A DNA stretch of 64,000 bases from a phage, in sequence record PZ386951.1; one strand, given 5' to 3'. Position 1 is the stretch's first letter; each line of letters begins with the position of its first letter. Position numbers and translations under genes: made by a program. The notes beneath the pieces were generated by a model. That model did not search any database. It was not told the DNA's origin and saw only the letters and a program-made list of their open reading frames with translations. Positions 3,319-36,969 of the stretch are shown here, piece by piece.

Positions 3319-4334
3319 TGTGTTGCCTCTACATATAACTGATTTGCATATTGAATAAGTGCTTCACGGTCAGAATCAGTGATGTCTGGAATTGCATTAA
3401 TATACTCTTCCATTAATGTCTGAAGCGATTGAACTTCAACTTCTTCACTGTCATCTGACTCGACAGAGTTATCAATCTTTGACACAACTCGTAATGAATG
3501 CACAACTTTTTCTAGTTCAGATTCGAACTTCGTCAGATTTTTGTCTACCTCAGTTACTATAACACGTACTGATAGATTTGTAAAATCTTTATAGTCAATT
3601 TTTCCTTTAAATGGATAATGAATTCTACGATGCCAGGTAGTGTTGTTTGGAATAAATTCCATTCGTTCTGTTTCTGTATCAAACATCCAGAACCCACGAG
3701 GGTCATTCTCGTCACCTGCAGTTAGTGTCCATGGTGTACCAATATATCTGACGTTAGCAGCCTCAGAGATAGTATGGAAGTGACCAGACCACACTTCTTT
3801 ATAAGTCTTAAGGAAATCAGGTTCAAGACCGTGAGATTTCATTCCTTTATAAAAATAAAATCCATTCAGCTCCCAGTGACCAACACAAAAAGAAGCAGAT
3901 GAAGTTTTGATGTGTTCAAGAATTTCACCAGTATTTTCTTCACACATCCAAGGAATTAAATCAATTAAACATCCGTCAAAATCTACTGTAGTAGGCTTAT
4001 CATATACTTTAACATTAGGATATTTAGCCAAAAGCTCAGTAGAGGCATTTGGATGCATTACATTTTTGTAGTGGAGATCGTGATTTCCTACAATAGTATG
4101 TAATGTGATTCCAGCACCATCAAGCATTTGAACTATTTCACGGGCAAACTCCATAGTTTTATGCGTGATTGCTTTTCGCACATCAAAAATATCACCATAT
4201 TGAATCCATACAGTAATTCCATTTTTCTTAGAATATTCTATCGCTTGCTTAATTCCATCAATTTGAATACCGCGAATCCACTCATCATCAGCTTTAACGC
4301 CTAAATGCCAATCACCTAAATTTAAAATTTTCAT
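3315..4334 (-). CDS. 47: recombination endonuclease subunit gp47 (Mre11/SbcD-like phosphoesterase)
   Basis: 339 aa; calcineurin-like motifs GDWHLG, GDIFD, GNHD, GHWE/GHFH; length equals T4 gp47. Confidence 0.9.
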   Translation of the reverse strand: MKILNLGDWHLGVKADDEWIRGIQIDGIKQAIEYSKKNGITVWIQYGDIFDVRKAITHKTMEFAREIVQMLDGAGITLHTIVGNHDLHYKNVMHPNASTELLAKYPNVKVYDKPTTVDFDGCLIDLIPWMCEENTGEILEHIKTSSASFCVGHWELNGFYFYKGMKSHGLEPDFLKTYKEVWSGHFHTISEAANVRYIGTPWTLTAGDENDPRGFWMFDTETERMEFIPNNTTWHRRIHYPFKGKIDYKDFTNLSVRVIVTEVDKNLTKFESELEKVVHSLRVVSKIDNSVESDDSEEVEVQSLQTLMEEYINAIPDITDSDREALIQYANQLYVEATQ

Positions 4335-4469
4335 ATATCAAGAACCGTCATTGAAATGCAAAATAAAATTATTGAAATAAACCCATCTGGGGTGCTAAAG
4401 AACCCAATCCAACATGCTCTAGTGAATAGATAAAATGCGAGAAAAAGTATCACATATCCAAGAAATATC

Positions 4470-4497
4470 ATTATATCAAACTCCGTATAAAGCTAAA
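4470..4497 (-). promoter_or_regulatory. candidate MotA-type middle promoter upstream of gene 47
   Basis: Minus strand reads tttaGCTTTAtacggagtttgaTATAATga: MotA-box-like AGCTTTA about 12 nt upstream of TATAAT. Confidence 0.3.
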
Positions 4498-4511
4498 GGG
4501 CCGAAGCCCTT
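4496..4511 (-). terminator. stem-loop aagggc-cgaa-gccctt immediately after the a-gt stop (UUCG loop on minus-strand RNA)
   Basis: Perfect 6-bp GC-rich stem with tetraloop; identical 16-mer recurs at 7873..7888. Confidence 0.5.
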
Positions 4512-5713
4512 TATTTTGTAATAATGTCAAACTGCTCTTTAAAGCAGAAGCTTGAATCTTGATGCTGATACAAAAATTCATATGCTTTTTCTCGCTCACG
4601 GTCATAAAGAGCTCGGTCAGATGACAGTTCTTTAATACGCTCGAATGTTGATTCCATGTCATTTTCATCAAACCAAATGATACCGCTATCATGAGAAATT
4701 AATGGAGTGTTATCAACACGGAATTTTAAATTTTCGCCCGTAGATTTCCAAAATACCGGAATTGTTCCACATGCACCAAGCTCGAGATGAGTATATTCTA
4801 AAGAGCGCTGTAGATATTTTTTATCCAACTTACTCAACTGATAACCAAAACCGGATTTACTCATACGTTCAAGCATTTCGCTATTTACATAACGGTCAAG
4901 AATTTGCGTTGGCAAATTAGGAGCAATTTTAATTTGGTCTACTTGATGAAGACGATAATACTCGTATGGAATTCCTTTTTCTTTAATAGGAATGAACGCT
5001 GGAGAACGTTCTAGACCTTCCATAATAGTACTTAGTCCTGCAGGTTTAAGATATTTTTCATGAAAATCAAACATCTGATAAAAACCTTTCCATGTAGTCG
5101 TACGACCAATCCAACGATTGATATTCATGTTAATTTCAGAAACATCTTTCCAGTATGTTGATCGAACCTTTGCAATATCCATCGGAGGCTGAAAGTTATA
5201 TACGGTCGGTGCTTCTTCAATATCATCAAACAGAGAAACAGTTTCTGGATACCACTCTTTCATCAGAACTTTATTAAAATCACCATTATCAGAATGGCTA
5301 AAAATAACATCAGCCCGACGAACAGTTTCTTCTAATCCCAAATTTCGACGCAAAGAAAGAGAAGAATGGTCATGCTGATAAACTACAACACGAACCGAAG
5401 GTTTAATGTTATCAATAATTTTTTTATAGTTATTAATTGTGTCTTCTTCAACTGAAGTAGCAGGAACTGAATTGATAATTAGAATATCACAATCATTTAC
5501 CAGCTTAAGTGTTTTATCGTATTCTTTTGCCAATAAAACAGGAATTGAAAATGATTTATAATCATGTGCACAGTTACGAGTAAATGATTTATCTTTAGCA
5601 TAAACCAAAGTTACTTCATGACCATTTTTAATAAACCAATCACGTTGCTCAAGAGAAAATTTAGTTACACCACAACCTTCAAGACCTCGAGCCATAAAAA
5701 TACATACTTTCAT
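4511..5713 (-). CDS. a-gt: DNA alpha-glucosyltransferase-like (hydroxymethylcytosine glucosylation)
   Basis: 400 aa, same length and position as T4 a-gt between 47 and 55; N-terminus MKVCIFMARGLEGCGVTKF resembles recalled T4 AGT. Confidence 0.75.
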   Translation of the reverse strand: MKVCIFMARGLEGCGVTKFSLEQRDWFIKNGHEVTLVYAKDKSFTRNCAHDYKSFSIPVLLAKEYDKTLKLVNDCDILIINSVPATSVEEDTINNYKKIIDNIKPSVRVVVYQHDHSSLSLRRNLGLEETVRRADVIFSHSDNGDFNKVLMKEWYPETVSLFDDIEEAPTVYNFQPPMDIAKVRSTYWKDVSEINMNINRWIGRTTTWKGFYQMFDFHEKYLKPAGLSTIMEGLERSPAFIPIKEKGIPYEYYRLHQVDQIKIAPNLPTQILDRYVNSEMLERMSKSGFGYQLSKLDKKYLQRSLEYTHLELGACGTIPVFWKSTGENLKFRVDNTPLISHDSGIIWFDENDMESTFERIKELSSDRALYDREREKAYEFLYQHQDSSFCFKEQFDIITK

Positions 5714-5734
5714 TTAATATCCTCTTTGTTTTGG

Positions 5735-5758
5735 TTTATTTTACCAAAAATTTATAAA
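5735..5758 (-). promoter_or_regulatory. candidate MotA-type middle promoter upstream of a-gt
   Basis: Minus strand: TGCTTTA (exact MotA-box core, plus 5752..5758), 11 nt, TAAAAT. Confidence 0.35.
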
Positions 5759-5763
5759 GCAAT

Positions 5764-5783
5764 ATAGGAGCCGAAGCTCCTAT
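5764..5783 (-). terminator. stem-loop ataggagc-cgaa-gctcctat
   Basis: 8-bp stem with tetraloop in the intergenic region upstream of a-gt. Confidence 0.4.
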
Positions 5784-5956
5784 CCACATAATACACCGTA
5801 TAGAGGCTCATTAGAGCTTCTAAATTTTCTGCGCTTATATGTTATAGTTCCTTCTGCTTTAGCTTTATCATGAGACTCTTTAAAGCGTCTCATCATTTCC
5901 TCTTTAGAGGAACGAATTTTATTATAATCTATTTCAGAAGTCTGGGTGTTCATCTT

Positions 5957-6163
5957 TCATAACTGCCACCATTTTTTGACTTGATAAGAATCAACCCACA
6001 CTTTCATATTAGGGTTTGCTCTTACAATAGGAGGATTAACTTCTTTAATTGAACTATCGTGGTATTCTTTTTCAGAAATTTTCACACAAAGATGACCATT
6101 CAAAGATTCAGTAAATCCTGCATTAATTTTAAGACGCTTGAATTTTACGTGTGTAAGCATCAA
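5957..6163 (-). CDS. hypothetical protein (68 aa)
   Basis: ORF in the a-gt/55 interval. Confidence 0.45.
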   Translation of the reverse strand: MMLTHVKFKRLKINAGFTESLNGHLCVKISEKEYHDSSIKEVNPPIVRANPNMKVWVDSYQVKKWWQL

Positions 6164-6446
6164 TCATATCCTCAATCTGCGATCTAGTAGTCTTCCAAAG
6201 AATACTGATGAGTTCATCGTTATATGGCTGTTTTAGAATATCCCGACTTTTCTTGATAGCATATTCGTATTGAGCAAAATTATTATTTTCAGCTGCAATC
6301 TGAGCGTGCTTATAAAGACGATTCAGTTCACGTTTGTTTTTAGACAATAACTTATTTGCTTTTCTTTCTGCTTCAAGACGGTTCTTTTCTTCAATAGAAG
6401 AAATAAGCTTTTCCACTTCATCATTAATTTCGGGTTTATCAGTCAT
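6129..6446 (-). CDS. hypothetical protein (105 aa, charged/helical)
   Basis: ORF in the a-gt/55 interval. Confidence 0.5.
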   Translation of the reverse strand: MTDKPEINDEVEKLISSIEEKNRLEAERKANKLLSKNKRELNRLYKHAQIAAENNNFAQYEYAIKKSRDILKQPYNDELISILWKTTRSQIEDMIDAYTRKIQAS

Positions 6447-6447
6447 A

Positions 6448-6666
6448 TTATTTCTCTAATATAAAATAAAAATCATCATCTGTTAAATGATACCGATAGT
6501 TTAATTCTACACCATTAGATTTAAAAGCGGTATCATACGGATTTTCTGGATCAATATCAATGTCAAGAGCTAAAACTTCCCTGAGATACATTTTAAGTAA
6601 ATAGGGAATAGCTTCAACTTCAGGTATTTCTTCCAAGAATCCGGAGAGGTTAATCGTTAGCCTCAT
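6448..6666 (-). CDS. hypothetical protein (72 aa)
   Basis: ORF directly downstream of gene 55. Confidence 0.45.
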
Positions 6667-7207
6667 ATAAAAAATCCAAACTAGGAGAATCGTCTACAAC
6701 ACTTTTCTTTTCAGCCCCCGGTGTTCTATAAGTTGATTCTTCGTAATGCGTCATTTTATCGTAGATGTCTTGAATAAAAGTTTCATCTACTAACGCAACC
6801 ATATCGTCGTCACGACTGTCATAGACATTGTGAACGAAGTAACTATATTTCTTTGCAACTTCCTTACGTTCTTTTTTAATACGTTGGACGAATGCATTAA
6901 AACAAGCTTGAGTTATATATGCATGTGGGTTTTTATATTTCGTTTCATCAAAATTATGAAGCCCCTTAATAGAAGCTTCTATACCGTCTGCAATCATTTC
7001 TTGTTTCCAAGACTGGGTGTATCCTGAAAAGTTGAAACGTTTAGATAAGCCTTCTGCAATAAGCATAATGGCTAATCCGATAGTATCATTCTGACGAACT
7101 ACTTTATTTGGGTCTTTATTATTTGCTAATTCTGTTTTCCAATCAATAATAGCTTGTAAAAGCTCTTTATTGTTTACGTAATTATATTTAGGCTTAGTTT
7201 CTGACAT
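6650..7207 (-). CDS. 55: late-transcription sigma factor gp55
   Basis: Sequence from [16 protein letters not shown] matches recalled T4 gp55 N-terminus; 185 aa when started at the second Met of the track ORF. Confidence 0.85.
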
Positions 7208-7289
7208 TTTCACCTCTTAGCTCAATTCATAGATCTATTATATCATAATATTTGAAGATCTATCTTAAAGCATAGAGGATGAATCAATT

Positions 7290-7505
7290 TCAAGAATTCA
7301 TCAGCTTAGCCGCTCCAAGAGCTGCATCTAGTGAATCAAATTGGTCAACATATTCAATCAATTCGCCGTAATTAGCGTATAACCACCATTGGCTAAATTC
7401 ATACTCAAGGATGAATCCATTTCCTTCAATTTGAGTTAAACCATTGCCGTTTGTATTTACTTCATATCCGGCAAGACGTAAATCGTTAATAAGAGCTTCG
7501 TTCAT
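7290..7505 (-). CDS. hypothetical protein (71 aa)
   Basis: ORF in the 55/nrdH interval. Confidence 0.45.
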   Translation of the reverse strand: MNEALINDLRLAGYEVNTNGNGLTQIEGNGFILEYEFSQWWLYANYGELIEYVDQFDSLDAALGAAKLMNS

Positions 7506-22387: not shown

Positions 22388-22909
22388 TTATCCTTTCATT
22401 GAAGGTGTAACAGTTGTTAAATACTTAATCATAGCTTCAGCTTCTGATTTTGACAATGAAATTTCTCCATTGTTTTGACGAATAGAAATAAAATCCGGAT
22501 GACGGTCACCACCAGCTTTTAAAACACACATATAAGTATCAGTTTCATCTTCAATATCTGAAATGATTGAAGCAGTTCCGCATGAATGTGGTTTTTGATA
22601 AATCAATGCAGCTTTTCTTCCACCGTTTGACTGTTCATAAACTTTTAACACATCAAACAAATCACTTCTTTTATCAATAGCTAAGATGTTGTTTTCATCT
22701 TCAATGTTAAATCCTTCGGATACTTCATAAAGTGTCACCCATAAATCGCCAATATCAATGACAGCATTCACCTTTCCATGATTTTCAAGAGCATTACAAA
22801 TTTTCTTAATTTCATCATAACTCATTTTAATAATATCATCTCCTTGAATAAAGAAGATGTCATTTTTAAATTCAACGCGAATTAAACCACTTTCACTTGA
22901 AATAAACAT
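22388..22909 (-). CDS. hypothetical protein (173 aa), paralog of 22916..23473
   Basis: C-terminus SKSEAEAMIKYLTTVTPSM aligns with TKDEAIALKTYLDSVIPTM of the neighbour. Confidence 0.55.
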   Translation of the reverse strand: MFISSESGLIRVEFKNDIFFIQGDDIIKMSYDEIKKICNALENHGKVNAVIDIGDLWVTLYEVSEGFNIEDENNILAIDKRSDLFDVLKVYEQSNGGRKAALIYQKPHSCGTASIISDIEDETDTYMCVLKAGGDRHPDFISIRQNNGEISLSKSEAEAMIKYLTTVTPSMKG

Positions 22910-22915
22910 ATTTCC

Positions 22916-23473
22916 TCACTTTGAAATCATAGTTGGAATGACAGAATCAAGATAAGTCTTTAGCGCAATAGCTTCGTCTTTGGTAAATGTGACAATATGC
23001 GATCGAAAATCGTCAATTTGACGAATAGTTAAGACATCTCCCTCTTCATAACATTTTGATACATTTAAAAGAGTTTCATCATTCTGATTGCAAGCGTTAG
23101 TAATAATAGCATTGCAATTTTTGAGCCATTTTAAACTATGTTTTCTTTCATTAGAATAATAAAAATATTTAATCTTAGCTATAAAACTATCCCAATGGAT
23201 AACTGATAAACACATTGACTCACTTTTAATATTAAATCCTGGGCATGAAGAATAAAAATGAATTTTGTGCTCATCATTGATGCTTACTATTTTATCAGTA
23301 TAAGGATATTCAATTTGGGTTAAATGAATAATTTCACTAGGTGTAAAATACATCATATCGTCTTCTTGCGTCAAACGATACATATTATTTACTTTTTCTA
23401 TAGCCAATTCACCAAAAAGTGGACTAACTTCTAATACTAATCGTTTCATATTGATTCTCTTCGACTCGCTCAC
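22916..23473 (-). CDS. hypothetical protein (185 aa), paralog of 22388..22909
   Basis: Shared C-terminal motif EAxAxKxYLxxVxPxM. Confidence 0.55.
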   Translation of the reverse strand: MSESKRINMKRLVLEVSPLFGELAIEKVNNMYRLTQEDDMMYFTPSEIIHLTQIEYPYTDKIVSINDEHKIHFYSSCPGFNIKSESMCLSVIHWDSFIAKIKYFYYSNERKHSLKWLKNCNAIITNACNQNDETLLNVSKCYEEGDVLTIRQIDDFRSHIVTFTKDEAIALKTYLDSVIPTMISK

Positions 23474-31382: not shown

Positions 31383-31685
31383 TTATTTACCTTTAATTAC
31401 TTTAGCTGCTTCGATAGCCGCTTGCTGAAGGTCATCCATAGACATACCGAATTTAGAAGCAAAGTTATCAATTTTCTTTTCGACAGCATTCAAAGGCTTG
31501 GCCTGTTTACCTTCATTAGCGCCAGGAAGAGCGAGAATACGCTCTTTGTCAATATAAAGGCTTACAAGTTTCTTACGGTCTTTATCGGACAAATCATGAA
31601 ATGAATGGGCCTTTTTATTTATAGCGGCTTCTAATTTACCTGCACTCACTCGCGCTTCAGTAATAAATTCTTGATATGTTTTCAT
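31383..31685 (-). CDS. ipII: internal protein II
   Basis: 100 aa, N-terminal CTS MKTYQEFITEA; position denV-ipII-ipIII-e as in T4. Confidence 0.8.
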   Translation of the reverse strand: MKTYQEFITEARVSAGKLEAAINKKAHSFHDLSDKDRKKLVSLYIDKERILALPGANEGKQAKPLNAVEKKIDNFASKFGMSMDDLQQAAIEAAKVIKGK

Positions 31686-31726: not shown

Positions 31727-32305
31727 TTAGGAATTACGGGCTGCATTAGCAACGGCATACGCGTACTGAACATTAGCGTCTTTAAACGTACCTTTAGAGG
31801 TATCTATTTCTGCCTTAAAGCCGCCTTTAGTCATAACATCGGCAAATTCTTTACGGAAAGCCATTGCATCAAGACCTTTCCATGATGATTTATGCTTGGC
31901 GAATTCAAGACCAGCGTAGTTGACAGCCTTAGCTAATTTATTATCAATAACCCATTTACCAGCTTTAGGCACAAACTTCGGGCCTTTCTGTTTAGAGAAC
32001 AGTTTTAAATTCCAGCGGCGAAGGTCACTGTCGGCTTTAACAAAAGCTGCGTCTAAGTTACTAGCAACAACATCTTCAATATGAGCAAATTTAAGTCCGT
32101 CAACTTCAATATTTAGATCGGTACGCCAGCGAAGTCCTTCCCAAGCGAAGGCTTTAAAGTCGGAAGCCTTTGTAGCTAAGTACCGTTCAATAGGAGCTGT
32201 TTTAGGGTCAAAGCCGTTTCCTGATCGGTAGGTCCACTCATCTTTGTTAATGCCTTTGGCCTTTACTACAGAAACTTCGGCAATAAATTCTTGATATGTT
32301 TTCAT
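31727..32305 (-). CDS. ipIII: internal protein III
   Basis: 192 aa, CTS MKTYQEFIAEV; basic Lys/Ala-rich; position before e. Confidence 0.8.
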   Translation of the reverse strand: MKTYQEFIAEVSVVKAKGINKDEWTYRSGNGFDPKTAPIERYLATKASDFKAFAWEGLRWRTDLNIEVDGLKFAHIEDVVASNLDAAFVKADSDLRRWNLKLFSKQKGPKFVPKAGKWVIDNKLAKAVNYAGLEFAKHKSSWKGLDAMAFRKEFADVMTKGGFKAEIDTSKGTFKDANVQYAYAVANAARNS

Positions 32306-32398: not shown

Positions 32399-33367
<969 letters not shown>

Positions 33368-33386
<19 letters not shown>

Positions 33387-33856
33387 TCAGTGATAAAGTT
33401 ATTTAAATTTTGAGTATATTTCTTTTCATCAAAAATCTTTTGTTGTCTGCGTAAACGCCATGGCATTTCAATGAACACGCACCATATCCCAGATAATATT
33501 GCTGCTGTAAAAATATTAACAAGTATGGTTAAAAGAATCCAATCTCCTATTCTGTCCATTGGATTTTTTATAAAAAAGTAAAATACGAATGATGTCACAG
33601 GAAGACTAATAATATACCACAGAATCATAATTTTATCTGTGAACCAATCAGCGTTCGTTAACTTAGCGCGACCATTATGAATACACACGAATTTATCATC
33701 TGTTATAATAGATGGCTTAGCTGCTTGATATCCCATTCTAAACTCCCTAATCAACAAATTTTTCATATCTTCGGAACAACCATTCCAGTCAACTCTATCA
33801 ACTGGAATGCCATCATCCCCATCATCTAAATCGTACCAGCGAGTTTTTAAAATCAT
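33368..33856 (-). CDS. membrane protein (162 aa; soluble N-domain, 2 TM, basic C-tail)
   Basis: C-terminus ...FITECRKLK shared with the next two ORFs. Confidence 0.55.
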
Positions 33857-34215
33857 TTAATTTTCCTACAATCACTCACAAACTCTTCCATTGATTCTTT
33901 TTCAATATAAGACATGTAGCTATTATATTCTTTTAATTGTATTTTGTAATCTTTTTTTCTTTGCCAATTTATTTTAAAATTATCATAATGAAAATATAAC
34001 ATGGTACCAAAGAATGAAAATAATGAAATAATTTTAGTATAGTGAAGTTCACTCCAAACTTCTATTATATTTACTGTGCCGTCAATGTTTAAAATAAGAC
34101 AGTCAATTAACAATCCAAAAAGACTACCCGCAAGAGCTGCAGCCAACGCCACAGCAAAAATTAAAAATGACTCAGGAAGCGAATATTTGACTTTATTTAG
34201 TTTTGGCTTTTGCAT
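33853..34215 (-). CDS. small membrane protein (120 aa)
   Basis: 2 TM helices then ...EEFVSDCRKIK. Confidence 0.55.
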   Translation of the reverse strand: MQKPKLNKVKYSLPESFLIFAVALAAALAGSLFGLLIDCLILNIDGTVNIIEVWSELHYTKIISLFSFFGTMLYFHYDNFKINWQRKKDYKIQLKEYNSYMSYIEKESMEEFVSDCRKIK

Positions 34216-34589
34216 CGTGATTCCTTAACAAATTTCATAATTTCATCAAATTCATACGCAGCAAGTTTAAGCTGGTGTTCCTTTTTAATCTTTTCACACT
34301 GTGCTTTCCAATCACGTACGCGTTTACGATAATGTCTTCCTTGATACCAGTATCCTACCCAATTTACAGGTACTAACAAAAGTGGAACTATTAATGGAAG
34401 AATTAGCATTAATACCAGTATTTCGCCAGAATCAATATCAGTCATAACATCTAAAACACCTCCAATAATCAATAGAATTACAAATGATATGAGTATAACA
34501 GGACCTATTAATACATCAGTAGAAATTATCTGACGCTTTAATTCATACTTTAAGGGTTTACTTGGAAGATACATTGATGGCTTTGACAT
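34197..34589 (-). CDS. small membrane protein (~130 aa; start uncertain)
   Basis: 2 TM helices then ...MKFVKESRCKSQN. Confidence 0.5.
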   Translation of the reverse strand: MSKPSMYLPSKPLKYELKRQIISTDVLIGPVILISFVILLIIGGVLDVMTDIDSGEILVLMLILPLIVPLLLVPVNWVGYWYQGRHYRKRVRDWKAQCEKIKKEHQLKLAAYEFDEIMKFVKESRCKSQN

Positions 34590-35166
34590 ATTCTCTACAT
34601 TCCTTAACAAATTTTTCTAGTAATAAATCACTTTCAAAATTAGGATTTTCCACTAATTTATCAAAAAGATCATCAACAATATTCAAGATATTTCTTTTAC
34701 TAAGAATACGTTTATTTTCATGCTTCGTTTCAGAATCAACTATAAGAGTAAAGAAATATTTCTTTCCCTGAAATTTTACTGTAGTATCAATATAGAATAA
34801 ATTTGACTTTTGTAAGTTACGTTTAAACCATGCGTCACTTAAACTATAAACACCGAGATAATCAAAATCGTCGTTTAAATAACATACTGTCCATTCAGGA
34901 GAAATGAAATCAGTAAATTCAACATCAAAATCACACGTCAATGAATGAATTGATTCAATGCTGTTAATAAGTATTCCAGGACGTATTAAAGACTTTTTAC
35001 CTCTAGAAAATCTTCCAGAAAGACTTTCATCAGTTTCATATGAAGAACCCCAATAATAATTACGTCCTTCTGCCATACGTTTAAGAGCATTTAATAATTG
35101 GTCTGGAACATCAACATGTCTTTGGAACTCTTCAAACATTGAATTGAAATCACTTTGCATTTTCAC
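34558..35166 (-). CDS. hypothetical protein (202 aa)
   Basis: ORF. Confidence 0.55.
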   Translation of the reverse strand: MKMQSDFNSMFEEFQRHVDVPDQLLNALKRMAEGRNYYWGSSYETDESLSGRFSRGKKSLIRPGILINSIESIHSLTCDFDVEFTDFISPEWTVCYLNDDFDYLGVYSLSDAWFKRNLQKSNLFYIDTTVKFQGKKYFFTLIVDSETKHENKRILSKRNILNIVDDLFDKLVENPNFESDLLLEKFVKECREYVKAINVSSK

Positions 35167-35207
35167 TCCTATTTACTCCAAGTAATAGGGGCCGAAGCCC
35201 CTTATCA

Positions 35208-35801
35208 TTATTTCAGAGAATTAATATATTCCTGAACATCGGCAGAGGTAGTTTCAACCCCAGAAATATTACCATTAAAGGTTTCAACTCGAGCAAGTGT
35301 GTCTTCAATATCAACCTTAGTCAGTGCTGCAATTTCAACTACATCATCAGCAGTACTAATTCCAAGGGCATTTGCTGCACGAGTTTCACGGATATATTCC
35401 AATTTAACTGCAAGTTCTTGGCGAGCATCATCTAACTCAACTACTTTCTTGGCGATTTCAATTCGCATTTCAGCATAACCATCAGCTTTAGTAGTCAGCT
35501 GTTCAGCTGTTCGACGATATAGCAAACCGAGTTTAGCATGCATTGTTACATCTTGACCTTCGGAAAGAAGCTTGCGAATTTCACGCTCTTTTGATTCGGC
35601 CTGTCGATTCTTTTCGGCAATAAGTTCACGAATACGTTTTTCTTCATTAATAGATTTAACAGAAGCAGTTTTTAGATCTTTAATTTTATCAAGTAGCTTT
35701 GCTGCTGCAGCAGTATACTGTTCTTCAACAGATAGATTTTTAGCCATAGCAGAACCAAGTTTAGTGCGAATAAACTCAACAATTTTCTTCAGTGTGTTCA
35801 T
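35208..35801 (-). CDS. PspA/IM30-like coiled-coil protein (tentative)
   Basis: 197 aa, almost entirely helical; segment DTLARVETF resembles the PspA DEAMARFESF region. Low-complexity similarity only. Confidence 0.4.
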
Positions 35802-36405: not shown

Positions 36406-36969
36406 TTATTTACCCAGTTTAGTTATTATAGCTTCGGCAGCAGCTTTTAGCTTAGATGCAGTGTTAATACGATTTTTAATTTCAGTATACGCATCGCCAA
36501 GAACATCAAGGCTATCTGAATAAACACTTACACTATTGCGTTCACTATTTGAAATAGAACCTTTAGTTTTACGATCAAAATCGGTGTACACGTCTTGAAG
36601 ATCGCGGGCTGCCTTCTTTGCATCATCCAATGCATCAAGAGCTTTATTTAAAGCATTAACATATTTTTTAGTGTCAAACATATTCTTAGAAATTTTGACG
36701 GGTGCGCGTTCAGGAGTAGCTAAGGCAGATTTAGGAACCTGAGCGCCTGATGCCAGTTTCTTAGAAATTTTGAAAAATGCTTTATTGAATTTATTTTCTT
36801 GACTCATCGTAAAAGAACTATTATCGATGTTATACATTTCAATAGCTTTAGCTTTCCACTTAAGAAAATCGCCCCGGTCTTTTGGGTCCAAGTGGAAGAA
36901 TACTTTAGTAAGATCTGCTTCAGATGGTAATTTTGCTGCTTCGGTTAAAAATTCGGCATAGGTTTTCAT
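36406..36969 (-). CDS. internal-protein-like gene with capsid-targeting signal (187 aa)
   Basis: N-terminus MKTYAEFLTEAAK (CTS-like, predicted gp21 cleavage after LTE); RBS AAGGA. Confidence 0.55.
   Translation of the reverse strand: MKTYAEFLTEAAKLPSEADLTKVFFHLDPKDRGDFLKWKAKAIEMYNIDNSSFTMSQENKFNKAFFKISKKLASGAQVPKSALATPERAPVKISKNMFDTKKYVNALNKALDALDDAKKAARDLQDVYTDFDRKTKGSISNSERNSVSVYSDSLDVLGDAYTEIKNRINTASKLKAAAEAIITKLGK

Follow-up and report, generated by a model that had tools for sequence, protein, structure and literature searches.

The question raised by positions 33,368-34,589 of a 64,000-nucleotide (nt) stretch of phage DNA (record PZ386951.1; the whole stretch is referred to as the window) is why adjacent genes for small membrane proteins should end in nearly the same short peptide. 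A first-pass annotation made from the sequence had described three consecutive open reading frames (ORFs) of 162, 120 and about 130 residues, each with two transmembrane (TM) helices and a basic cytoplasmic tail, and had regarded them as a tandemly duplicated family. The peptide, hereafter the box, has a consensus that may be written Φ-x-x-F-[IV]-x-[ED]-C-R-[KR] (Φ, hydrophobic), followed by 0-15 residues. With a probability of about one half, it may serve as a shared docking or targeting peptide for a common cytoplasmic partner or fate.

The box at the ends of consecutive genes

The three ORFs, with lengths and C-termini as first described, are adjacent, real T4 genes: by profile match and synteny they are e.2, e.3 and e.4, named msp7, msp6 and msp5, respectively, in the old T4 record L13089. 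The window is from a Tequatrovirus (T4-like). The 2.3 kb around e.2-e.4 is found in 507 phage records at 90-99% identity, and the gene order around it, with e.6 and e.5 upstream of e.4 and with nudE and the lysozyme gene e downstream of e.2, is the same as in T4 and hundreds of Tequatroviruses. Synteny and the names of the three genes agree in phages Ac3, ASO78A and RB69 and in L13089. The run e.5-e.4-e.3-e.2-nudE forms a series of overlapping cistrons in the variable region between gene e and the tRNA genes. Full-length matches in PHROGs were obtained for e.2 (phrog_2203, E = 8e-79), e.3 (phrog_2330, E = 2e-60) and e.4 (phrog_2604, E = 2e-70), and e.5 is phrog_2607; precomputed Pfam labels exist for e.2 (PF26896) and e.4 (PF26873), with none for e.3. 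As T4 ORFs of no assigned function e.2, e.3 and e.4 are already known. The novelty lies in the C-terminal box that they share, in how widely it occurs and in its three uses; the e.5 box, the wider range of small carrier proteins, the embedded Shine-Dalgarno (SD) sequences and start codons and the joint of an e.2 deletion all go beyond the first-pass annotation. The carriers in the window and their boxes are as follows.

33368-33856, minus strand: e.2, 162 residues; soluble acidic N-terminal domain (1-77), predicted TM hairpin, basic cytoplasmic helix, box-bearing tail
33380-33397, minus strand: e.2 box F-I-T-E-C-R (TTT ATC ACT GAA TGC AGG), by motif match and alignments
33853-34215, minus strand: e.3, 120 residues; short basic N-terminus, predicted TM hairpin, long cytoplasmic helix, tail EEFVSDCRKIK
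33865-33882, minus strand: e.3 box F-V-S-D-C-R (TTT GTG AGT GAT TGT AGG); F and C invariant between genera
34197-34589, minus strand: e.4, 130 residues from the ATG at 34589; basic N-terminus, two strong predicted TM helices, long basic helix, tail MKFVKESRCKSQN
34215-34232, minus strand: e.4 box F-V-K-E-S-R; Ser for Cys here, Ile in RB69 and VR7
34558-35160, minus strand: e.5, 200 residues from its ATG; soluble, without TM segment; tail EKFVKECREYVKAINVSSK; 32-nt overlap with e.4
34594-34611, minus strand: e.5 box F-V-K-E-C-R, 11 residues before the C-terminus, by motif match

The e.4 homologues all begin with MSKP.

Short tails rich in K, E and R might resemble one another by chance. However, in the window ORFs, approximately 19,300 residues in all, the pattern F[IV]x[DE][CS]R is observed four times where 0.054 would be expected, and all four matches are C-terminal, in the consecutive genes e.5, e.4, e.3 and e.2. 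When the C-terminal 20-mers are compared in pairs (n = 5,460), e.2/e.3 ranks first, e.3/e.5 joint second and e.2/e.5 fourth. In a scan of the complete T4 genome (168,921 bp; 1,259 ORFs of at least 30 residues, all frames), these four genes alone had the same pattern no further than 15 residues from a C-terminus, and [FW][IV]xxCR occurred three times anywhere against 0.34 expected, always in the e.5-e.2 cluster. In IMG/VR, a degenerate DNA pattern for F-I-K-E-C-R-K yielded 49 matches, just four of which are C-terminal in real ORFs; these are all T4-like e.2 or e.3, and the remainder are internal or out-of-ORF chance matches. Considering also that the box is kept in eight genera, chance likeness deserves practically no credence and may be taken as refuted, and the tail similarity noticed at the outset stands as statistically significant.

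Joint second among the tail pairs are also the similar C-termini KSEAEAMIKYLTTVTPSMKG and DEAIALKTYLDSVIPTMISK of the ORF at 22388-22909 and an adjoining ORF that begins at 22916 (minus strand); the two may be a further pair of neighbouring paralogues.

The tail is widely distributed in related phages. The box is seen in at least eight genera (Tequatro-, Mosig-, Gapriver-, Dhaka-, Jiaoda-, Moon-, Karam- and Biquartavirus), where it ends e.2-, e.3-, e.4- and e.5-like proteins as well as other small proteins of the e region, downstream of e.6. For example, RB69 ORF133c (101 residues) is a fourth hairpin protein with matching element order and the tail LENFIKECRGK. The tails of Klebsiella phage Mineola (Jiaodavirus) are DEFIKYCRKRVQK (e.5-like, soluble), FEFIKEVRRK (e.4-like hairpin), NTWIRSCRK (hairpin), LSWIKEMK, and LELFIAKCRAK (soluble, 102 residues); those of Citrobacter phage Moon (Moonvirus) are DDFINLCRDELKVKE, MDFVMEMRK, LTFIENCKNEK and ELFIMQCRMRKTECC; those of Enterobacter phage myPSH1140 (Karamvirus) are SDFINYCRGQ, ESFIRMCRKN and ESFIDDCRRARK (hairpin); and Aeromonas phage L9-6 (Biquartavirus) has ELFVDYCRRTASKK. 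Soluble carriers free of a hairpin comprise e.5-like proteins of 196-263 residues and proteins of 102 (Mineola), 95 (Moon) and 131 residues (myPSH1140).

Numbered from the box Phe, 28 tails of the eight genera, gathered by regular expression, are hydrophobic at position -3 in 26 cases and have E or N at -2 in 18; position 0 is F (26) or W (2), +1 is I (21) or V (7), +3 is E (16), D (3) or Y (3), +4 is C in 22, +5 is R (25) or K (3), and +6 is mainly K or R. Within the e.2, e.3 and e.4 families the box residues are invariant columns at an overall identity of 22-33%, and the e.2 box is invariant in 23 Tequatrovirus sequences and through four genera.

In RB69 and VR7 the distance from e.3 to e.2 is 3-4 kb, filled with other small genes. 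Among them is a second tandem family, of small soluble proteins of 65-96 residues ending in G-x-W-V-S-S-S-x-x-C and mostly followed by TAA GGAA N5 ATG, which is another conserved tail with a terminal Cys. It is located at 5746-6541 in RB69 (L015), 6081-7340 in VR7 (L014), 5066-5835 in Moon (L071) and 4299-4825 in myPSH1140 (L072), and is absent from the window.

Membrane hairpins and the duplication question

Hydropathy was evaluated on the Kyte-Doolittle (KD) scale in 19-residue windows. The predicted segments, with the corresponding AlphaFold2 helices of e.2 and e.3, are listed below.

33569-33625, minus strand: e.2 TM1, residues 78-96; KD 1.99; AlphaFold2 helix 69-96, low confidence
33470-33526, minus strand: e.2 TM2, residues 111-129; KD 2.31; AlphaFold2 helix 99-161, low confidence
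34105-34161, minus strand: e.3 TM1, residues 19-37; KD 2.47; AlphaFold2 helix 13-42
33985-34047, minus strand: e.3 probable TM2, residues 57-77, weakly hydrophobic; KD 1.07-1.5; start of AlphaFold2 helix 58-119
34443-34499, minus strand: e.4 TM1, residues 31-49; KD 2.85; hypervariable between phages
34365-34421, minus strand: e.4 TM2, residues 57-75; KD 3.04

The two TM helices claimed for each protein are clear in e.2 and e.4, but the second segment of e.3 is weak (KD 1.07 for residues 57-75, and 1.5 for residues 62-76 in a 15-residue window). The AlphaFold2 model of e.3 is nevertheless a hairpin, consisting of helix 13-42, a short helix 50-56 and an unbroken helix 58-119 that reaches the C-terminus; its mean pLDDT (predicted local distance difference test) is 75.9, with the best confidence over the final 30 residues. 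The model obtained for e.2 is of low quality (pLDDT 51), which ruled out a fold search with the e.2 N-terminal domain, and has comparable helices at 69-96 and 99-161. The inter-helix loops of the three proteins contain 0-2 K/R versus 2-3 D/E, e.3 and e.4 are basic in their N-terminal flanks (4-5 K/R), e.2 has a slightly acidic N-terminal domain of 77 residues (11 K/R versus 14 D/E), and the C-terminal segments are basic (9-14 K/R), as had been described. From this charge pattern and the positive-inside rule, an N-in/C-in topology follows, and e.2, e.3 and e.4 are therefore predicted to be N-in/C-in helical-hairpin proteins of the inner membrane. Common to them is the order hairpin, W plus basic juxtamembrane stretch, helix, box.

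Adjacency, topology and element order are those expected if e.2, e.3 and e.4, with RB69 ORF133c, arose from one hairpin gene by plain tandem duplication. The tail would then be the slowest-evolving remnant, and e.5 would carry the box since the duplicated unit began in the 3' end of e.5. Sequence homology was assessed with hhalign. With Tequatrovirus-only alignments, e.2 and e.3 match over a 13-residue tail (P = 0.004), e.3 and e.4 match over an 18-residue N-terminus with the common start M-x-K-P-x-L (P = 0.02), and nothing was obtained for e.2 and e.4. With the alignments widened by RB69 and JS09 (Mosigvirus), VR7 (Gaprivervirus), IME08 (Dhakavirus) and fDHCT2, e.3 and e.4 match over 40 columns that start where TM2 ends and reach the box (P = 5e-6, probability 86%) and e.2 and e.3 over 16 columns (P = 1.2e-5); the match of e.2 and e.4 is not significant (P = 0.04), yet in register. 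For ORF133c, the match to e.2 spans 63 columns and takes in TM2 (P = 2e-6), that to e.3 spans 17 (P = 2.5e-6), and e.5 matches e.3 and e.2 with P about 1e-3 over 11-14 residues only.

Two further observations favour duplication. The e.5 and e.4 tails are identical over 16 nt, AAATTTGTTAAGGAAT, each then followed by a similar gene start, ATGTCAAAGCC and ATGCAAAAGCC, respectively. In nature, e.4 residues 1-31 also occur fused in frame to e.2 residues 87-162 (P0051, Escherichia phage vB_EcoM-UFV05); in this fusion, e.3 and both intervening halves are deleted, and the joint is the P-V shared at the start of TM1.

On the other hand, similarity between e.2, e.3 and e.4 is limited to 13-40 C-terminal or 18 N-terminal columns instead of covering the greater part of the protein, the three are kept in separate families by PHROGs and by the precomputed Pfam labels, and except for the 18 residues of e.3 and e.4 their hairpins and N-termini have no detectable similarity. 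Moreover, the box also ends several soluble proteins without a hairpin, e.3 and e.2 are far apart in RB69 and VR7, and duplication alone leaves unexplained why only the box is invariant between genera. On these alignments the C-terminal cytoplasmic module is judged to be homologous, and the hairpins are alike in topology without detectable sequence similarity. Of the tandemly duplicated family proposed at first, therefore, the module and the common architecture stand, and homology over the whole proteins does not; plain duplication as the origin of the box is a possible but doubtful account.

Ribosome-binding sites, deletion joints and selection in the tails

The tail DNA has uses of its own, for which the following features are relevant.

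32931-33371, minus strand: nudE, Nudix hydrolase, last cistron of the e.5-nudE series; Pfam NUDIX (E = 2.6e-13) and annotations
33368-33371, minus strand: ATGA overlap of e.2 stop and nudE start, from the sequence
33377-33382, minus strand: SD AGGAAA for nudE, in e.2 codons R159-K160; ribosome-binding site (RBS) annotated here in phage Ac3
33853-33856, minus strand: ATGA overlap of e.3 stop and e.2 start, from the sequence
33862-33867, minus strand: SD AGGAAA for e.2, in e.3 codons R117-K118
33862-33870, minus strand: TG(T/C)AGGAAA microhomology (Cys codon 33868-33870 plus SD); TGT here, TGC in T4
34213-34215, minus strand: ATG of e.3, inside e.4 codons R125-C126
34221-34226, minus strand: SD AAGGAA for e.3, in e.4 codons K122-E123
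34600-34605, minus strand: AAGGAA upstream of the e.4 ATG, within the e.5 tail

The pairs e.5/e.4, e.4/e.3, e.3/e.2 and e.2/nudE overlap by 32, 19, 4 and 4 nt, respectively, and each next-gene SD is encoded in the upstream tail, as AAGGAA (K-E) for e.4 and e.3 and as AGGAAA (R-K) for e.2 and nudE, 5-10 nt before each ATG. The tail DNA is thus seen to carry a recognisable SD and the start codon of the next cistron. It may then be argued that the box is a by-product of translational coupling, the motif being imposed by the downstream SD, spacer and start codon. The ATGA overlaps at two junctions agree with this, as does a lowered synonymous diversity: third-position diversity is 0.028-0.075 in the tails versus 0.10-0.14 in the rest of the genes, and the tails are therefore under an added nucleotide-level constraint.

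However, the SD falls in the K-E of some tails and in the R-K of others, and is therefore out of register with the box. In RB69 ORF133c, K-E is encoded as AAA GAA and the SD is shifted further downstream. No SD accounts for the F, [IV] and C of the box, and the Arg codons CGT and CGA hold no part of one. Furthermore, 36 same-strand junctions of the window have a gap of at most 2 nt, many with an SD in the upstream tail, but the box is found in none of the 32 SD-bearing ones outside the cluster. The four junctions have no special RNA structure, their 80-nt folds being no stabler than shuffles (z = 0.64, 0.10, -0.85 and 0.66). Finally, the next gene begins 28 nt after the stop of the Mineola 102-residue protein and 67 nt after that of the Aeromonas L9-6 263-residue protein, and there is therefore no downstream RBS overlapping the box in these carriers, although the box is kept. 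As a full explanation of the box, coupling is largely refuted and must be considered very improbable. A possible likeness of AAAUUUGUUAAGGAA to the RegA operator was set aside, there being no AUG at the equivalent position.

The pattern of codon use bears on the protein. The e.2 box Arg codon is AGG in Tequatrovirus and RB69 and CGT in VR7, IME08 and fDHCT2, and that of e.4 is CGA, AGA or CGT in three orthologues. The Cys codon is TGT or TGC and the Phe codon TTT or TTC, and residue replacements within the box are conservative (I/V, D/E and S/T). Because the Arg codons turn over and the box persists without an overlapping downstream RBS, the comparisons indicate that it is maintained by selection on the protein.

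The e.4 tail of phage Ac3 (OK040907.1, L001) was excluded as proof of synonymous turnover and treated as a synthetic or assembly artefact. Its e.4 ORF (3810-4202) has 50% G+C versus 27-37% for its neighbours and all other phages, and 69.7% nt identity to its homologue at 34197-34589 of the window, with 112 of 131 residues identical. Codons preferred by E. coli are used exactly from ATG to stop. Through the recoding, the ATG of e.3 becomes CTG, the e.3 SD is lost and the e.5 C-terminus is changed. This version occurs in no other of 50,697 phage records and not in E. coli genomes. The gene looks like a synthetic codon-optimised gene in the assembly.

Within Tequatrovirus e.4, mean pairwise amino-acid identity is 59% in TM1, 41% in the loop and 70% in TM2, versus 95% in the juxtamembrane stretch and 90% in the tail. 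Among nine loci, the diversity at codon positions 1+2 and at position 3 is 0.122 versus 0.144 in the hairpin and 0.014 versus 0.105 in the juxtamembrane stretch. Therefore, the hairpins appear to be nearly unconstrained or diversifying, and the cytoplasmic module under strong purifying selection; e.3 and e.2 follow this trend in a weaker form. The e.4 TM hairpin (34365-34499) is the most variable stretch of the e.5-nudE block among Tequatroviruses, with 4-residue indels in TM1.

A third use of the tails is seen where e.2 has been lost. Three Tequatroviruses (Pu-Krd-SF5, RPN226 and an IMG/VR contig) precisely lack e.2, in frame. In these, e.3 overlaps nudE by ATGA, and the hybrid tail consists of the e.3-type TTTGTGAGTGAT and then the e.2-type TGCAGGAAATTAAAATGA, the joint reading GAT and then TGCAGGAAATTAAAATGA. 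The T4 e.3 tail, with the TGC allele, is identical to the e.2 tail over the 9 nt TGCAGGAAA, where the deletion joint of the three phages is located. The comparison shows that in nature e.2 has been deleted precisely and in frame at the near-repeat of the e.3 and e.2 tails. Tblastn at 60% identity or more gave e.2 in about 448 Tequatrovirus records, e.3 in about 499 and e.4 in about 504, and e.2 is deleted in roughly 10%. It is also frameshifted or truncated in T4 assemblies (L009 and L068), which have a 102-residue 'msp7' and a separate 63-residue tail ORF, and broken in P0050 and P0045-48; the split PHROGs families 35263 and 35580 reflect it as well.

Such a joint would be expected if the tail were a recombination linker, i.e., a DNA-level junction moving with gene cassettes in the manner of the PeSL (early promoter and stem-loop) elements, whose coding position is incidental. 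The precise loss of e.2 at the tail repeat, the difference of 3-4 kb in e.3-e.2 gene content between genera and the presence of the box on unrelated proteins favour this, and the region is of a known hyperplastic type in which short repeats mediate shuffling (PMC2839356, PMC4122927). In contrast, nucleotide identity of the tails is short (9-16 nt) and fades between genera while the amino acids stay, with four Arg and two Cys codons in use. The I/V, D/E and S/T replacements indicate peptide selection, and in some pairs homology reaches 40-63 residues upstream of the box. A linker is regarded as an unlikely explanation, though less improbable than coupling.

Proposed role and comparison with known systems

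A conserved terminal peptide under protein-level selection is thus found on otherwise unrelated proteins, hairpin and soluble, in eight genera, and the reading to which about an even chance has been given is that of a docking or targeting peptide. In the hairpin proteins TM2 is predicted to run on as a long basic cytoplasmic helix ending in the box. On the docking reading, the box would tie fast-evolving early accessory proteins, in the membrane and soluble, to one common cytoplasmic partner or fate. This may be a hub protein, a protease or a chaperone, or the tails may bundle with one another, while individual specificities would come from the variable hairpins or soluble bodies.

Several points weigh against this reading. 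The role is deduced purely from the pattern of conservation. In most carriers the box lies just upstream of the next start codon and synonymous sites are constrained, so that nucleotide and protein roles are entangled. F, [IV] and [RK] were fixed by construction in the set of 28 tails. The hhalign probabilities reach just 81-89% and were obtained with shallow alignments of short helical segments rich in Lys and Glu. Since e.4 has Ser or Ile in place of the Cys, not all carriers need that residue, and many phages, T4 assemblies among them, have e.2 deleted or frameshifted, so that e.2 at least is dispensable. Compared with shuffled sequences, the tails have no significant hydrophobic moment (p = 0.08-0.6), and the idea of amphipathicity was dropped. 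The literature searched makes no mention of the tail peptides, gives no function for e.2-e.5 and records no partner, localisation or phenotype for box carriers.

About half of the T4 genes are without a function, and the variable region between e and the tRNA genes is among the least understood parts of the genome. One peptide of 10-20 residues could be used as bait for a partner, and one substitution, C to S or R to A, could be tried in several genes together. Modular effectors engaged in an arms race between host and phage would be expected to combine, as here, an invariant cytoplasmic tail with a near-neutral TM hairpin. Function is also compactly stacked, as one stretch of 20 nt would have three uses: peptide signal, RBS of the next cistron and microhomology for deletion.

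A more specific form of the docking reading, put forward tentatively and by analogy, is that the box may be a C-terminal counterpart of the T4 capsid-targeting sequence (CTS), a portable tag routing early effectors to one conserved machine or fate. Possible destinations would be a common hub, with the always-adjacent e.6 as one candidate, a host AAA+ protease, for which the box would act as a timed degron, or a modification directed at Arg or Cys. Beside the last idea, it may be noted that nudE, a hydrolase of ADP-ribose and NAD derivatives, ends the same cistron series. If the tag were real, new effectors could be plugged in merely by recombination at the box. The candidate hub and the sequence next to it are the following.

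35208-35801, minus strand: e.6, 197 residues, helical; conserved, directly upstream of the box-bearing genes in most genera examined
35187-35202, minus strand: G+C-rich UUCG hairpin between e.6 and e.5, from the sequence; annotated as a terminator in a related phage

The gene e.6 is widely kept (1,101 phage records). A comparison of e.6 with the hub PspA, and of e.2-e.4 with PspB/C, gained no support from sequence searches: Pfam gave no PspA match for the single sequence or for six genera, and an e.6 profile found none in PDB sequences. The hairpin, GGGGC-UUCG-GCCCC, directly follows the e.6 stop and is a rho-independent terminator according to the annotation of phage ASO78A; it has no U-tract on the coding strand, and no promoter is annotated between it and e.5.

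Searches for relatives of known function were negative. Local Pfam, NCBIfam and PADLOC gave nothing above threshold for e.2-e.6 or RB69 ORF133c, phmmer of e.3 against 1.84 billion representatives gave just four true relatives, all T4-like, and Foldseek of the e.3 model against BFVD matched unannotated small proteins of T4-like phages and nothing else. Public records name e.3 and e.4 'sulfurtransferase', one e.3 'DNA primase' and e.6 'host specificity protein' (P0053, P0056, P0110, P0125 and others; hits H179, H184 and H188-H190), and the family searches back none of these names. An e.4 homologue (P0134, 86% identity) lies on a 489-kb contig labelled Escherichia coli, which is either an assembly chimera or phage DNA inside a bacterial assembly.

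Four kinds of known system may be compared with the box. First, the exact arrangement of ATGA translational coupling is present at e.3/e.2 and e.2/nudE, with overlaps of 32 and 19 nt at e.5/e.4 and e.4/e.3. This is a general feature of phages, but it explains only the K-E or R-K of the box and not the rest.

Second, PeSL cassettes, the nearest precedent on the side of recombination, are repeats at gene boundaries in the variable regions of T4-type phages, where genes are precisely lost or gained (PMC2839356, PMC4122927). The tails resemble them in that a short boundary repeat lies at the joint of a natural indel, the e.2 deletion. However, a PeSL is intergenic and consists of an early promoter and a stem-loop terminator, whereas the repeat in the e.2-e.5 tails is coding, identical over 9-16 nt and conserved as a peptide, with no significant structure and no junction promoter.

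Third, Imm, Sp, Ac and RI are small early inner-membrane proteins of T-even phages, encoded in non-essential regions. In being small early membrane proteins of such phages they resemble e.2-e.4; the present searches revealed no sequence relationship between the two groups, and Imm, Sp, Ac and RI are not known to carry the box.

Fourth, the CTS directs late proteins into the T4 head and is removed by the prohead protease. Among the internal proteins, which are otherwise diverse, nothing but this N-terminal sequence is conserved (PMC3012670), and it is the nearest precedent for the box within the same phage. Like the box, it is a short conserved terminal peptide on diverse, fast-evolving accessory proteins, and the genes of both sets lie in one part of the genome (PMC3012670). 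The CTS is N-terminal, whereas the box is C-terminal, its carriers include integral membrane hairpins, and targeting by it is a presumption. The window itself has CTS-type N-termini, MKTY(Q/A)EF(I/L)(T/A)E, in the minus-strand ORFs at 31383-31685, 31727-32305 and 36406-36969, which are of the internal-protein type (IPII, IPIII and another).

Finally, the classifications PHROGs 2203, 2330, 2604 and 2607 and Pfam PF26896 and PF26873 cover the same genes, yet as separate families without function between which the link of the box is not drawn. The box joins at least five such separately classified families, over eight genera, into what may be one testable system.

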